A stretch of DNA of 33,222 nt from an uncultured Rikenellaceae bacterium (GTDB lineage Bacteria; Bacteroidota; Bacteroidia; Bacteroidales; VadinHA17). The stretch spans positions 1 to 33,222 of the forward strand of contig CAZEWS010000006.1 of NCBI GenBank assembly GCA_964515985.1, in the 5' to 3' direction. Made by a program: the position numbers and the translations under genes. Under the pieces are notes generated by a model. The model was given only the letters and a program-made list of their open reading frames with translations, was not told the origin of the DNA and did no database searches. Each line of letters starts with the position of its first letter. Positions within the stretch are counted from its first letter, which is position 1. This document shows positions 5,281 to 29,801 of this stretch, one piece after another.

Positions 5281-7242
5281 TCATTCATCAAAATTTTCGT
5301 TTTCAGTGTCACTCCTGATGATTTCAAATTTTTTATCATACCTGATAAAAAACATTTCTTTATTTTCAAAACCATCTGAACGGTAATTACGCTGAAAGTT
5401 GTAATTAGCATGCAGCAAGTCAATCTTGTATCGTGATACATTGTTTCTGAATCTTCTTCCATATCTGCCAAAACCACTAAGAAAGTAAAACATGATATCA
5501 TAACCCTGCCAGGCAAAACTGAATTGGTTAGGTTCAGTATGGAATTGTTTCCTGAATTTCATTATAAAATTCTTCACATCATCGTTTTCATAATCCAATA
5601 AAAACGGTGTGTACAGATGCAGATCCAAATTACAAAAATGTTCAAGTTCAATGCTTCTAAACCTTTGCCAGTTATGATATCCAAACAACTTTATCTTATA
5701 ATCCGGGGCGAGTGTATTCAGGTTTGAAACCACATTGCTCACAAAAGCTTCATTACCTGAAGCAACCAGTACGATATTATCAATATCACTTGATAAAGCA
5801 TGCTCAATACTGTTTATGGCATCATTCTTCGTGATTTGATTATTATAAACCACTTCCTTAAAAACCACTTCGTTAAAAAATGTCCGGTAGAAAAAATAAG
5901 AAAACAAATTTCGTTTTAATTCATTAATATGCTCTGTTTCCAAACTATCTCCCGGATGAATCATAACAATATTCTTATCATAAAATCGCGAAATGTAGTT
6001 CGTTATTTTATCAAATTCCGTTGATAAAGAAGGTCTGATCTGAAACAGATAGGGATTATCCTCTAAAAGTTCACTACGAGACGACAGGGGAGAAACCACC
6101 GGAATACGATATGATTTCGCATAATCGGCAACCATTCTCATGTTGAAAGAATACACAGGACCAATAATAAGATCCATTTTCCTGAGTTTTCCTTCCTCCA
6201 AAAGTTCCTGAACCGTTACAGAATCATTTTCTGTATCAAAAACAAAAAGATTAATCGACAATCCTGCTTTTTGCAACGAATCGATTGCAATAAAAGCACC
6301 TTCGTAGAACTCAAGAAAATTCAGACTTTTTGGATACATCCATGTTTCTTCCCGTTCGATGGATTTGAAAATTCTATTCCCAAACTCATCTATTTCAGAA
6401 GAATCGATAACAATCCGTTCGTCATTCTCATCAAGATAAAAAGGAAGCATAAGGGCTACATCAATTGTTCCTGAAATTTTAAAGTCGCCGGGCAAATCGA
6501 ATTCCATATCCAGGGAATCAACAGGCTCCTCAATATTGTTCATATTTTGGGCATAACTAATGCTAAAAATGTCAATCTTTTTCTTTTCAACAGGAATCCT
6601 GAGATATTGACCATATTTTGGACCACCTTTTAAACCATCATTGGATCTCCTGATCTCACGAACCGGAACCATGAATTTCCTTGAAATTGAATACAATGTT
6701 TCCTTTTTCCCAACACGATAATACGTAAAATGGTCTTCATCATGATCGAAATTTTCAACATTGGTTTGAAACCTTTGTTTAGGAATCTTGATTCCTGTTC
6801 CGATTGGGATATCATTAATATCCAATTCAGGGTTATGTTTTAAAATCTCTTCAGCTTCAACACCATAATCAACCGAAAGTGAATAAATTGTTTGGTTTTC
6901 CTCAATAACATGGTAAATATATTTTCCCGGTTCTTCCGGTTTAAATTCTTCGATTTCATTATTCTCAACTACCGGTATTTTCAAAGCCTGCCCGGGTTGT
7001 AAACCAAATTTTACAGTTGGGTTTTCCTTCGATATCTCTTTTTGCGAAACAAAATAAACCCTGCTAATGGCAAATAAGGTTTGACCTTTTTTAACAATAT
7101 GAATGTAATAGGGTTTACCCTCCAGTATGATCTTATCTTTTGATTTCTTAACCTCAACAGGCTCATCCTGTCCATACAAGGCTCCAATCAAAACAAGTTG
7201 AATAATAATTGCCGTAATAAAGCCGGAAGGTGATTTCAACAT
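5281..7242 (-). CDS. LysM (x3) plus periplasmic-binding-protein-like domain protein
   Basis: Three LysM repeats (e.g. YIHIVKKGQTLFAISRVY..., YHVIEENQTIYSLSVDY..., YYRVGKKETLYSISRKF...) precede a type-I PBP-like C-terminal half. The track start 7254 is TTG; ATG 7242 gives a clean signal peptide. Confidence 0.8.
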   Translation of the reverse strand: MLKSPSGFITAIIIQLVLIGALYGQDEPVEVKKSKDKIILEGKPYYIHIVKKGQTLFAISRVYFVSQKEISKENPTVKFGLQPGQALKIPVVENNEIEEFKPEEPGKYIYHVIEENQTIYSLSVDYGVEAEEILKHNPELDINDIPIGTGIKIPKQRFQTNVENFDHDEDHFTYYRVGKKETLYSISRKFMVPVREIRRSNDGLKGGPKYGQYLRIPVEKKKIDIFSISYAQNMNNIEEPVDSLDMEFDLPGDFKISGTIDVALMLPFYLDENDERIVIDSSEIDEFGNRIFKSIEREETWMYPKSLNFLEFYEGAFIAIDSLQKAGLSINLFVFDTENDSVTVQELLEEGKLRKMDLIIGPVYSFNMRMVADYAKSYRIPVVSPLSSRSELLEDNPYLFQIRPSLSTEFDKITNYISRFYDKNIVMIHPGDSLETEHINELKRNLFSYFFYRTFFNEVVFKEVVYNNQITKNDAINSIEHALSSDIDNIVLVASGNEAFVSNVVSNLNTLAPDYKIKLFGYHNWQRFRSIELEHFCNLDLHLYTPFLLDYENDDVKNFIMKFRKQFHTEPNQFSFAWQGYDIMFYFLSGFGRYGRRFRNNVSRYKIDLLHANYNFQRNYRSDGFENKEMFFIRYDKKFEIIRSDTENENFDE

Positions 7243-10885: not shown

Positions 10886-11272
10886 GGTTTTTGGTTCTCG
10901 GTTCCCGGTTCTCAGTTCCCGGTTACAAACACAAAATTCTCCTCCTTAGATAAGGAGCCTGCCCGAAAGAATGAATTCTTTCATTCAGGCGGGGGGAGGT
11001 GGTCTGACCAATTATTTCCTTAATTTTATATCTACCACCCCTCCCCCGTAGGGATGCCTGTGGCACTGTCAAGGAGGGGAATTTTTGTTGGTGCATATAG
11101 CCGAATACAATTCAGCTCTACATCCGTACCTTTCACATTTATCTTTTTCCCCTATGAAATGCTACTTTGCAGCAGTGGCTCTGCCACTATTTCACAGGGT
11201 AAACTTTTGTCTTTTGTATTGTCTCTTAATTCAAATCCCCTTCTCCCCTTCTCCCCTTCTCCTTCACAGACT

Positions 11273-11298
11273 CTGCCAGGTCCTTCGGACGCTGGCAG
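11273..11298. repeat. CTGCCAG-GTCC-TTC-GGAC-G-CTGGCAG hairpin module
   Basis: Seen directly. Same architecture as 11416-11441 and 22228-22253. Confidence 0.8.
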
Positions 11299-11415
11299 GT
11301 CTCTCCCAGTCTCTTAGTCTCTCTTTCTCTCAGTCCCTTAGTCACCCAGTCTCCCCATCACCCAGTCCCATTAGCCTCATCCTCTCAACCTTAGCCTCTG
11401 TTTTTTTTACCAACC

Positions 11416-11441
11416 CTGCCAGGTCTTAGAGACTCTGGCAG
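11416..11441. repeat. CTGCCAG-GTCT-TAG-AGAC-T-CTGGCAG hairpin module
   Basis: Seen directly. The inner stem differs from the other copies by compensatory changes. Confidence 0.8.
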
Positions 11442-11692
11442 GTCTTCTATCAATCAGAAATCCTCAATCAACAATCCGAAATTCAAAATCCCTTAATCCG
11501 AAATCCGCAATTACTCGCTCCCGCAATCCTTCACTCAATCCTGCTCGTGAGACATTCTGTTCGCTTTGCTCTATCCGAAATAAAATGACGAACCGACCGA
11601 CCGACCGAAGTCATTCGGGCAGGGAACTTCGTCCTACTGATCTCTTTTTCATCCCTTTCCCTATTACCCAGCACCTACAATTCTTTCACTTC

Positions 11693-15682: not shown

Positions 15683-16184
15683 TTATTCATTCGTTTTATC
15701 TTCCATCAAAACAGGAATAATGGAATACTGGAATACTGGAATAATGCCTGCCCTGTCTACCCTGTGAAACAGCAACTACGTTGCTCCTGCTACGCAGGGT
15801 TTCACGGGGTGAACCCTGTGAAATTTTATTATTTCTTTAGGGTTCACCCTGTTGTATTTATTGATTTATCCTACGTGGTAAAATGCGATGTAGGAGCTAT
15901 TTCTACACGGGAATACTGTCCCTACCAAAGGCCTGCCCGAAAGACTTCGGTCGGGCGGGCATCCCTTTGGGAGAATTAGGTGTTAAAGATATCCCTATGG
16001 GAGAGAACACTAAAACACACAAACACGTAAACACATAAATACAATAAAATAACATTTCAATCGCTAATAATTAAATAAAAGTAATTTAATCCAATACTCC
16101 AATATTCCAATATTCCGTAACTTATAATATCCTTCTTTTAACCGATTCGTTACAAATCTTTTTACAACGTTGCTATTATTCAAT
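15683..16184. repeat. mosaic intergenic repeat cluster B
   Basis: Bounded by octamer arrays GGAATAMT x4 (15714-15745) and their inverted counterpart (16091-16116). Contains a three-way-junction element, a GGTGAACCCT hairpin (15808-15848), and a 42-nt module (15870-15911) shared with 25470-25552. Confidence 0.85.
15760..15809. repeat. 50-nt element able to fold as a three-way junction
   Basis: The outer stem 15760-15770/15799-15809 has 11 bp including one G-T. It encloses AGCAAC-TAC-GTTGCT and CCTGC-TAC-GCAGG with no unpaired linker. An inverted copy lies at 25573-25629. Confidence 0.7.
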
Positions 16185-21118: not shown

Positions 21119-21620
21119 GTAAAGCTGCAAGCTTTAAGTTACAAGCTAATTTCGACTCTTCCGTTCCCGGTTCTCAGTTCCCGGTTCCTGGTTCCTTTTT
21201 TCTTGTTTCTACTTGGTTCTCTACACTACGCGCTTTGTGCTTTTTCCAGCCGAATACAATTCGGCTCTATATTTCGGTCTAAGCTCCCCACCACATCTGC
21301 GTACTGCTTACTGCCTACTTCTGCTGCAACTACTAACTCTTCTCTCCAATCAGTATTCACTTTTTCCCCTGTTAAATGCTACTTCGCAGCAGTGCCCGCC
21401 TGACTTATTCCTGCCCGATTCAGGCCCTGTGAAATCGAATATTATTTCACTGGGCAGGCGGGTTCGTCATTCGAATAATCGTCAATCATTTATCAAACAC
21501 CCGGCACCCAGTATCCCAGCCCGTACCAATCGGCACGTTCGGGCGGGCAGCACCTTGCACCTAACACCCCAGTGAAATATGCTCCTTCGTCGCATTTCAC
21601 GGGGCAGGCCCAAAATCTTC
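21119..21620. repeat. mosaic intergenic repeat cluster C
   Basis: The 24-mer at 21163-21186 is identical to 10901-10924. Also contains the GCCGAATACAATTCGGC module (21249-21272), a nested hairpin (21395-21462) and a CCCCAGTGAAAT hairpin (21567-21604). Confidence 0.85.
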
Positions 21621-21970: not shown

Positions 21971-22227
21971 GCATCGTCCAGCTTTCATTCTTCTAACTCC
22001 ACTCATTATTCTTTCCTGTAAATATAAAAAAATCCTAAAAATTTTCACTATGCTAATCTAAAGGAAGGAGTTCTTCGGACAAACTTTTTTAACATAAACA
22101 CATGAATACATTCACACACAAAAACTTCTTAAACAATTTAGCAGTTTAGCCATTTATCAAACAACCAGTATCCAGCAACTTCCCCTTCATCTTCTCAACC
22201 TAAATCTCAGCCTTTCCTTCACAGACT

Positions 22228-22253
22228 CTGCCAGGTTTTCCAAACTCTGGCAG
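22228..22253. repeat. CTGCCAG-GTTT-TCC-AAAC-T-CTGGCAG hairpin module
   Basis: Seen directly. This is the third copy with a compensatory inner stem. Confidence 0.8.
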
Positions 22254-22400
22254 GTCTTTTTCAAGTCGAATACAATTCGGCTCTACATCCGCACCTTTCA
22301 CTTTTTACTTTTATCTTTTCTCGTTCAGATCCCTCCTTTTGTCGGGATAAGTTCGACTATTGTTTTTCGCTACACCAGTTTGCGAAAATCAAGTCTCACT

Positions 22401-25462: not shown

Positions 25463-25629
25463 ATTATTCCCCTGTAGAAAAAGCTCCTACCCTGATGAAA
25501 TGTTTTCGTACCTCAAATTTCATAGGGCAAGCGTCGCATTTTACCCCGTAGGATAATTATTCCAACGGGGTGAACCCTGCGCAGCAGGAGCAACCTAGTT
25601 GCTGTTTCACAGGGTAGACAGGGTAGGCA
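25463..25629. repeat. composite repeat, an inverted counterpart of 15745-15917
   Basis: It comprises ATTATTCC, the 42-nt module interrupted by a 43-nt hairpin (25491-25533), and a 57-nt segment (25573-25629) that matches the reverse complement of 15745-15801 at 54/57. Confidence 0.8.
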
Positions 25630-25731
25630 TTCTTCCATTTTGCAATCATTCCCTGAATTTCCTAAAATTGTCTATATTTGAAAATTGAGATTTGAAATTT
25701 ATTTGTTTTTTGAATATTGTTTTTTGGTGCT

Positions 25732-26286: not shown

Positions 26287-26371
26287 AAAACCTTACCGTT
26301 AACCGCGCTTGTTATTCAGAGATTAATATCATTAGGTCGTTATTAGCTCGCTTCGCTCGCGTAATTCGATA

Positions 26372-26459
26372 GTCATACAATGGTCATACAATAGTCATAC
26401 AATAGTCATACAATGGTCATACAATGGTCATACGATGGTCATATAGTAGTCATACGATA
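26372..26459 (+). repeat. tandem array 1: 8 x 11 bp, consensus GTCATACAATG
   Basis: Units counted by hand, with 0-3 substitutions per unit. Confidence 0.95.
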
Positions 26460-26558
26460 GTTTACCCTGTGAAATTGCGAAGCAATATTTCATGGGGTCA
26501 TTCAGTAGTAATCTGGTAGTATTACTTTGTACTTTTTACTTTTGCCTTTACTTGATTG

Positions 26559-26635
26559 GTCATACAATGGTCAAACAATAGTCAAACAATGGTCATTCAG
26601 TTGTCATTAGGTTGTAATTAGGTAGTGATTAGGTA
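26559..26635 (+). repeat. tandem array 2: 7 x 11 bp, degenerating from GTCATACAATG to GTGATTAGGTA
   Basis: Counted by hand. Preceded by TTACTTGATTG, as is array 3. Confidence 0.9.
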
Positions 26636-26729
26636 GTTTTTACTTTTGCCTTTTCACCCTGTGAAATACGAAGTAATTTTGCTTGCAAAATTATTTCACT
26701 GGGTAAACTTTTGTCTTTTTACTTGATTG

Positions 26730-26795
26730 GTCATACGATGGTCATACGATTGTCATACAGTAGTCATACGATGGTCATACAGTAGTCATTCAATA
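26730..26795 (+). repeat. tandem array 3: 6 x 11 bp, consensus GTCATACGATG
   Basis: Counted by hand. Preceded by TTACTTGATTG. Confidence 0.95.
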
Positions 26796-26850
26796 GTCTT
26801 TAAAAGTTTGAAAATTGTTGGGTATTAATTAACTAAAAAATCAGATTTCG

Positions 26851-26895
26851 ATGCAATTAGAAGAATTAAAAGTATATCAACTTTCCATGACGTGA
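26851..26895 (+). pseudogene. 14-codon stump resembling the N-terminus of a four-helix-bundle (23S rRNA IVS / Avd-like) protein
   Basis: MQLEELKVYQLSMT* follows the (D/E)L.V(W/Y)Q.(S/A)M pattern I recall for this family's N-termini. It runs straight into the right-hand repeat array. Confidence 0.35.
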
Positions 26896-27146
26896 GCGAA
26901 GCGAGCTTATGACAATAAATGACAGCGAAGGCGCAGCCTGAGCGAATGACACGAACGAAGTGAGTATATGACGGCGCAGCCAAATGACAATTGAATGACG
27001 CCCGCAGGGCTAATTACACGAGCGAAGCGAGTGAATGACGCGAACGCAGTGAGCTAATGACTACTGAATGACAGCCGAGCGCAGCGAGGCAAATGACACG
27101 AGCGAAGCGAGTGAATGACGCAAGGCACGCAGTGCCAAGCAAATTA
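26896..27146 (+). repeat. ATGAC-punctuated GC-rich array rich in GNA-triloop mini-hairpins
   Basis: ATGAC occurs 12 times in 26887-27119. The 26-mer ACACGAGCGAAGCGAGTGAATGACGC occurs twice, at 27016 and 27096. GCGAAGC occurs three times, alongside several GCA-loop hairpins. Confidence 0.9.
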
Positions 27147-28240: not shown

Positions 28241-28453
28241 TGGAATAATAGGAACTTCAACCAACCTGCCGGCTGGCAGGTATTCCAATTTTCCAGTATT
28301 ACTCACTCCCGCAATCGTTATTCGCTCCCACAATCCAAGCTCTGGAACCAGCTCATGAAGATTGGCTCTTACTTCGTTCGAGCCAATCGTTCGCTCAATC
28401 CTGCTCGTGAGACATTCTGTTCGCTACGCTCCCAGAATGGTTCCATTATTCCA
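28241..28453. repeat. 213-bp MITE-like element with 14-bp terminal inverted repeats
   Basis: TGGAATAATAGGAAC (28241-28255) pairs with the reverse complement of GTTCCATTATTCCA (28440-28453), giving TGGAATAATGGAAC with one indel. The interior contains a CCTGCC-GGCT-GGCAGG hairpin and the 32-mer shared with 11534-11565. Confidence 0.5.
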
Positions 28454-29487: not shown

Positions 29488-29801
29488 TTTTTTGTCTGAA
29501 ATTTATTCCGGTCTACAAAACTATAAATTTTTTGTTTATTTTTACAGATACTCTGGCAGGTCTTTCTCCAGCCAAATACAATTCGTCTCTACATATTGCT
29601 CCAAGCTCTCCGCGCTACGCTCTCTGCCCCATTCTCCATGCTTCTTGCCCTTTATTTGGAGACTGTGGACTGCTGACTGGCGACTTTCCTGCCTATTGCA
29701 TTTAACTTTCTGATTTTCAAAAATAATTCACCCATAAAGACCTACTTTTAAATATATTTCATATTTTTATAGGCTTATAAATAAAAACCATTCCTATTAT
29801 T
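29488..29801. repeat. mosaic intergenic repeat cluster (half CTGGCAGGTCT module plus GCCAAATACAATTCGTCTCTACAT)
   Basis: The segment 29551-29594 has the same module order as 22245-22288. Confidence 0.75.
29516..29523 (-). promoter_or_regulatory. candidate -7 box TAgtTTTG for arcC
   Basis: Reverse complement of caaaacta, 35 nt upstream of ATG 29481. Confidence 0.35.

Follow-up and report, generated by a model that had tools for sequence, protein, structure and literature searches.

The three CTGCCAG/CTGGCAG hairpins present in a 33,222-nucleotide contig of an uncultured Rikenellaceae bacterium (hereafter the window, by which we mean this whole stretch of DNA) are very probably REPs, that is, short non-autonomous DNA repeats spread by a RAYT transposase (Y1/HUH; TnpA-REP). 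REP elements are a known kind of bacterial genome "filler". The family to which the hairpins belong is linked to a RAYT, in the case of the bulged type found in the window through two metagenome contigs, and the hairpins are not a dedicated structured-RNA gene but a DNA repeat tied to this transposase. The window itself is ordinary Bacteroidota chromosome (~36% GC) carrying purC, phoH, mazG, coaE, nusB, feoAB, a gene of the ornithine/aspartate carbamoyltransferase family and an amino-acid (carbamate-type) kinase gene; its species was found in subsurface and marine-sediment metagenomes. The long intergenic regions are mosaics composed of short repeat modules and G-poor heptamer-like arrays.

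Scanning the window with the pattern CTGCCAG-N(8-16)-CTGGCAG yielded exactly three matches, all on the + strand (11273-11298, 11416-11441 and 22228-22253). CTGCCAG-N12-CTGGCAGGTCT is present in three copies against zero expected, and none of 100 dinucleotide-preserving shuffles matched it. The original prediction stands with respect to both the positions and the sequences of the three copies. The stem it had proposed is real but too short, since AGAC (11268-11271 and 22223-22226) extends the helix by pairing to the 3' GTCT beyond a second 1-nt bulge. The full unit hence reads AGAC[N]CTGCCAG-GTYY-NNN-RRAC[N]CTGGCAG-GTCT and comprises 35 nt and 15 bp with one 1-nt bulge on each side; folding of the three copies gave -19 to -25 kcal/mol (z = -3.6 to -5.5) on either strand.

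REP copies 1 and 2 lie in the spacer that separates the stop of phoH from the start of purC. Copy 1 (11268-11302, - strand, likely the active or sense strand; 62 bits with the covariance model) reads AGAC-T-CTGCCAG-GTCC-TTC-GGAC-G-CTGGCAG-GTCT on the + strand, while copy 2 (11411-11445, - strand; 44.5 bits) has the inner stem GTCT/AGAC, the loop TAG and a degenerate outer foot with CAAC in place of AGAC. Copy 3 (22223-22257, - strand; 59.5 bits), with the inner stem GTTT/AAAC and the loop TCC, lies where a Thiamine_BP gene and feoAB diverge, a minority context for the bulged family. A conserved flank, CCTTCAC (GTGAAGG on the - strand), accompanies most copies in the clade; in the window it occupies 11261-11267 and 22216-22222 (both - strand), where the latter adjoins copy 3.

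A covariance model built from 63 family members and run on the window matched only the three copies and a solo right half-unit, ATACTCTGGCAGGTCT, at 29548-29563 (- strand; 14.9 bits, E 0.33, 20 model positions deleted). This half-unit is a truncated copy or an internal-deletion derivative; it falls in repeat family D7 and is followed by the CCAGCCNAATACAATTCG module that also stands after REP copy 3. Among the shorter relatives that had been proposed, the one at 29551-29563 is accordingly genuine, whereas 28265-28280 and 1567-1589 gave no match to the covariance model even at E<=10 with filters off and have only their CCTGCC/GGCAGG ends in common with the hairpin family.

Several other repeats populate the window. 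A module consisting of a small hairpin, GCCGAATACAATTCGGC, followed by TCTACAT often stands directly after a REP in the window and in the sister MAGs (window positions 11099-11147, 21240-21289, 22256-22305 and 29562-29611). G-poor heptamer-like arrays (CCCAGTC, CTCAGTC, CCTTAAC and others) occupy 11303-11400 and flank most copies; over 11-12 kb in the window the GC skew amounts to -0.34, and the - strand of 11235-11262 carries (GGGGAGAA)x3, similar to a G-quadruplex motif. The spacer upstream of the carbamoyltransferase-family gene is filled by three blocks of tandem 11-mers (GGTCATACAAT and variants; 26326-26832), and another intergenic repeat family, with a unit of ~27-34 nt containing CGAGCGAAGCGAG, is represented by five direct copies and an inverted partner (26338-26366 and 26887-27121). 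Another dispersed repeat forms an 80-nt inverted repeat (15722-15801 vs 25573-25652) with 88% complementary arms 9.8 kb apart. Upstream of purC, a long nested hairpin (AATTCCCCTCC...GGAGGGGTGG...CCACCTCCCC...GGAGGAGAATT) with variable inserts is present both in the window (10935-11078, - strand) and in CSMAG_1571 (L119 2285-2410); it may represent a leader structure or a further palindromic module.

In a scan covering one genome per species, the bulged form was found at 49 loci, nearly all of them in CSMAG_1571 and CSMAG_1309, the nearest relatives, whose PhoH proteins are 94-95% identical to that of the window. Exact bulged copies number at least 33 in CSMAG_1571 (a fragmented MAG) and at least 20 in CSMAG_1309, and a metagenome scan recovered at least 130 in at least 118 contigs; the closest Bacteroidota MAGs and sediment metagenomes thus contain at least ~190 further bulged copies beyond the window. 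These copies are extragenic, located between called ORFs within mosaic repeat arrays. In DNA metagenomes, the depth of the bin containing REP copy 1 and its flank was ~16x that of the neighbouring phoH; the sequencing runs examined are assembled contigs with DNA-like depth and show multi-copy depth and mosaic joints. A Pfam scan of 100 proteins flanking bulged copies revealed, among those listed, only assorted housekeeping families. One genuine copy was found in IMG/VR, and plasmids gave no match.

Copies are gained and lost quickly, with turnover between sister species. The orthologous phoH-purC spacer carries two copies in the window, one (rearranged) in CSMAG_1571 and none in CSMAG_1309 (L118), where the position of REP copy 2 is without a copy. 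No orthologous hairpin positions were found among the three close species, and the hairpin loci have no common flanking orthologues. In the CSMAG_1571 orthologue of REP copy 2 (L119 2110-2172), a second, 28-nt hairpin (CCGCCTTCGCATACTACGGCGGGCAGG-like) is nested in one arm. The same REP-arm position is occupied by this hairpin at several unrelated loci (L119 2129-2172; L227 6482-6544; L037 6749-6811; L007 3354-3416; L113; L228 ~6100-6205), and it represents either a secondary insertion at a specific site or a composite subfamily.

The arms of the window hairpins recur in a 34-nt perfect palindrome, AGACCTG-N-CAGGTTT-N4-AAACCTG-N'-CAGGTCT, of which the window form is a lineage-specific bulged derivative with two 1-nt bulges and a 3-nt loop. 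The first scan detected the palindrome as AGACCTGCCAGGTTT-N4-AAACCTGGCAGGTCT in Caldilineaceae, Ardenticatenaceae, Anaerolineae, Geobacteraceae and some Bacteroidota. A second scan, in which the centre base of each arm was left free, added cultured Flavobacterium, Gelidibacter and Autumnicola as well as Thiotrichaceae and Methylomonas to the hosts. The two arm-centre bases were complementary in 183 of 188 superfamily copies (A..T in 84, C..G in 80, T..A in 10 and G..C in 9), and the edge of the palindrome is sharp, falling between AG and ACCTG. Of 76 canonical copies in high-GC genomes, 31 lay "inside" an ORF, but naive ORF calling is not reliable in such genomes. In five Caldilineaceae/Litorilinea/Anaerolineae species the canonical palindrome is in frame (QTCQVxxNLAGL) inside a conserved ORF of ~280 aa without a Pfam hit (L039 7086-7919; L051 72-902; L053 3059-3910; L057 360-1196; L101 546-1325), with 76-84% protein identity on either side of the palindrome. 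At another locus (L011 5648-6416), a higB/higA toxin-antitoxin pair is situated between two canonical copies.

The link to a transposase surfaced only after the centre-free scan and a wider clustering of ORFs within 2.5 kb around all palindromes; a first clustering of neighbour genes within 1.5 kb of 115 loci had revealed no transposase. A protein of ~200 aa with the motifs NHFH and YIHxNP is encoded at five loci (L264, L134, L076, L099 and L238) with a palindrome immediately on both sides, and in each of the five the centre-base type of the flanking palindromes is that of the host genome. The protein has a weak Pfam Y1_Tnp hit, and its best NCBIfam hit is "REP-associated tyrosine transposase" (E ~1e-15, below the equivalog cut-off); the RAYT hits score below the curated Pfam and NCBIfam cut-offs. 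Its homologues number more than 7,900, and many are named RayT by JGI. Four of the five canonical RAYT genes contain an additional in-frame palindrome directly downstream of the HuH motif (L099 2028-2055; L076 797-824; L134 6280-6304; L238 1438-1464; ...RIRENQTCQVSKNLAGLHS... in L099 and L076), and most of the top homologues encode palindrome-derived peptides at this HuH-adjacent site (QTCQV..LAGL, QTSEV..TSEV, ELTGL..LSAL).

The bulged type provides the sixth palindrome-flanked RAYT gene. The metagenome contig L343 carries a 227-aa ORF (6012-6695) with the motifs NHFH and YIHHNP (NCBIfam NF047646, E 7e-13); bulged copies lie on either side of it (5927-5961 and 6751-6785), and a third is in frame within it at 6290-6324. 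The copy at 5927-5961 is identical in 36 of 36 positions to REP copy 1 of the window (11302-11267, - strand). A second RAYT, on the metagenome contig L437, is truncated at an internal bulged copy. Scanning metagenomes for a bulged copy in forward orientation within a RAYT gave no match; the internal copy has the other orientation. Since neither the window nor the ~300 kb of sequence examined from both sister MAGs yielded a RAYT gene, the linkage of the bulged type derives from L343 and L437. Both RAYT loci also carry a sister hairpin beside the bulged REP (CTTCCAG-GTCC-GTT-GGAC-G-CTGGAAG; L343 6258-6288 and 6704-6732; L437 4660-4685), in which the arm pair G-C is changed to T-A.

The inverted arms might instead be read as the terminal inverted repeats of a MITE moved by a DDE transposase, and the ACCTGACAGGT core is indeed part of a reported terminal repeat, that of ISDge11 from Deinococcus geothermalis (PMC7674623). 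However, target-site duplications (k = 2-9) did not exceed chance level in 187 copies, and the only gene recurrently flanked by the palindrome is the Y1/HUH transposase; we therefore regard this possibility as extremely unlikely.

The inner stem of the hairpins had been predicted to change in concert, and this was borne out in a larger set of 63 copies (48 distinct) collected with the interior left unconstrained in the search. Pair 15-21 was CG in 33 of the 48 distinct copies, UA in seven, AU in two, UG in two, GC in one and other in three, and pair 16-20 was CG in 22, UA in 15 and other in 11. Across these two inner pairs, 25 double-change cells were observed as compared with 9.6±2.0 after shuffling, a value that none of 500 shuffles reached, although subfamilies (e.g., GTTC..AAAC and GACC..GGAC) mean that the independent events are fewer than the cell counts suggest. 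The arm-centre base covaries as well, and the picture was repeated among the matches listed for a separate metagenome set. Pairing of the hairpin is maintained. Breaks are not uncommon, however: of the changed cells, 27 keep pairing and 23 lose it on the strand read in the original prediction, as against 35 and 15 on the opposite strand, where more pairing is kept because most breaks, A·C on the first strand, are G·U there. The non-Watson-Crick cells on the reader's strand comprise 13 A·C and two G·U, with the reverse on the opposite strand, and the A·C to G·U ratio on the reader's strand was 12:1 among the metagenome matches listed.

Selection on structure rather than on primary sequence, as originally proposed, is too strong a formulation: pairing is kept, but the AGAC foot is nearly invariant although the first scan had left it free. 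Likewise, the loop, thought to vary freely, has T as its first base in at least 90% of the copies. Divergence of the arms is small, the arms themselves being fixed by the search patterns. Concerted changes in the two arms could also be produced by templated (quasi-palindrome) mutation, without selection.

Each arm (RRAC-N-CTGSCAG-GTYY) is itself near-palindromic, and both bulges fall at the same position of each 16-nt half; together with the solo half-site at 29548, these nested palindromes are what one might expect of a duplex-DNA site bound by a dimeric or tetrameric protein. Yet C-G, U-A and A-U alternate in the inner stem and four complementary combinations occur at the arm centre, and several complementary pairs at the same positions fit base pairing, not base-specific contacts. 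Nor was a recurrent neighbouring regulator found, so that we consider a binding site of this kind very unlikely.

The orientation of the copies is linked to that of the adjacent gene. On the 3' side, as seen in the reader's orientation, the nearest gene lies on the opposite strand (convergent) for 46 of 56 copies in the first set and for 87 of 111 among the metagenome matches listed, while more distant genes at the same loci are convergent in 55% (first set) and 66% (metagenome matches listed). In co-directional spacers, the favoured orientation prevails over the unfavoured one by 25:4 in the first set and 36:10 among the metagenome matches listed. Convergent spacers outnumber divergent ones by 14:5 and, among the metagenome matches listed, 31:6 (pooled, 45 vs 11, the metagenome part again being the matches listed). 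Hence, the copies are mostly (~80%) located downstream of genes. The - strand of the window, opposite to that read originally, is the sense strand and likely the active one; it corresponds to the coding strand of the RAYT in L343. Most tails read CTCCCAGT on the reader's strand, and GTGAAGG on the opposite one.

These observations lend some substance to the view that the hairpins are host-selected structured RNAs, i.e., 3'-UTR or intercistronic stem-loops acting as terminator, attenuator or mRNA stabiliser, whose RNA folding is selected and whose repeat nature is secondary. Orientation follows the adjacent gene in 78-82% of the copies (the metagenome part referring to the matches listed), and does so less with distant genes; gene 3' ends are preferred, as the convergent spacers attest; G·U is tolerated on the gene-sense strand; and the fold is stable. 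Against this view, a U-tract is missing on both strands in most copies and bulged copies were not called in a terminator scan. The Rfam search that had been suggested returned no hit at the gathering score, and E<=1 gave only sub-threshold miRNA-hairpin noise (Rfam 15). Moreover, hairpin positions are not kept between sister species, the same sequence flanks and interrupts a transposase gene, and the strand asymmetry could equally stem from the active DNA strand of the RAYT or from a non-template C-to-T bias. A host-selected RNA is thus possible, but on balance it seems doubtful. An intrinsic terminator, lacking a directly following U-tract in most copies and negative in the terminator scan, was rejected, and a tRNA scan found none.

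The REP/RAYT reading is in keeping with the REP/BIME elements and their RAYTs described previously (Nunvar et al. 2010, PMC2817692; Bertels & Rainey 2011, PMC3116915). Both are imperfect, bulged palindromes (here of 35 nt) that number tens or more per genome, lie exclusively outside genes and mostly at gene 3' ends, and are set among other short motifs in mosaics; they are free of target-site duplications and associated with a Y1/HUH gene that the repeat flanks; palindromy preserved by complementary mutations is likewise a reported REP property (PMC2817692). Classical REPs, however, have a 5' GT[AG]G or CGTC head (PMC3733652, PMC6006769) that is absent here, where the ends are AGAC and GTCT, both paired in the stem, and their arms are not themselves near-palindromic as they are in the window family. 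The REP flanks of RAYT genes are inverted (PMC2817692), whereas the flanking and internal copies of L343 all have the same, direct orientation; around the canonical RAYTs, flank orientation cannot be defined because the palindromes are perfect. The REP/BIME hosts are Gammaproteobacteria, while those found here are Bacteroidota, Chloroflexota and Desulfobacterota.

Another counterpart is TnpA-REP subclass 2.4 (Quentin et al. 2018, PMC6006769; Bertels group 4). It is characterized by an NH[IFV]H motif, by REPs that lie in frame within the gene, and by "double-foot" REPs, in which one end carries a tetranucleotide and the opposite end the reverse complement of that tetranucleotide (PMC6006769). 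The NHFH motif, the length of ~200 aa, the double-foot REPs, the occurrence in Bacteroidetes and scattered across phyla, and the in-frame REP in the RAYT gene (L099, L076, L134, L238, L343, L437) all agree. Compared by motif and description, the Y motif is YIxNNP in subclass 2.4 vs YIH[HLFN]NP here, and the foot is GT[AG]G/C[TC]AC vs AGAC/GTCT. The subterminal hairpins of IS200/IS605 elements are similarly imperfect, with extrahelical bases, one-strand recognition by a Y1 transposase and no duplication upon insertion; unlike these, the hairpins studied here are dispersed alone, far from the transposase gene, which appears to be low-copy. With Rho-independent terminators they share a GC-rich stem-loop 3' of genes, but most copies are without a U-tract and the sequence, not the shape alone, is conserved across phyla. 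A REP sequence family with an AGAC/GTCT foot, nested-palindrome arms and four complementary centre-base variants was not found in the searched literature, where a search by sequence strings retrieved only primers and one IS terminal repeat.

Judged from REP/RAYT and IS200/IS605 biochemistry, a single-copy RAYT would recognise the REP as a single-stranded DNA hairpin, probably folded from the - strand of the window, and would then disseminate copies. The four base pairs next to the loop would stay paired by compensatory change because a copy must presumably fold to be recognised and copied. Inserted copies would persist mainly 3' of genes in one orientation, where transcription would turn them into stem-loops of 3'-UTRs or intercistronic regions that lack a U-tract. 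Such transcribed copies may act on mRNA 3' ends, with a putative role in stability or attenuation. A speculative and rather improbable extension is that the host has kept the copies, beyond their existence as selfish REPs, as stem-loops of the sense-strand RNA that lack a U-tract and that mark or protect transcription-unit 3' ends in this Bacteroidota lineage; if true, it would explain the ~80% orientation, the restriction of G·U to the sense strand and the avoidance of divergent promoter regions.

The striking hairpins of the window and much of the repeat-rich intergenic DNA of this lineage are, on the REP/RAYT reading, very probably products of this system, and they caution that covarying hairpins in a multi-copy repeat should not be taken to indicate an RNA gene. 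The palindrome family is common to Chloroflexota, Bacteroidota (including cultured Flavobacteriaceae), Geobacteraceae and others, and its REP copies stand in frame inside the RAYT gene as well as inside an unrelated conserved ORF. Its cultured hosts make the rules of RAYT-REP recognition testable.
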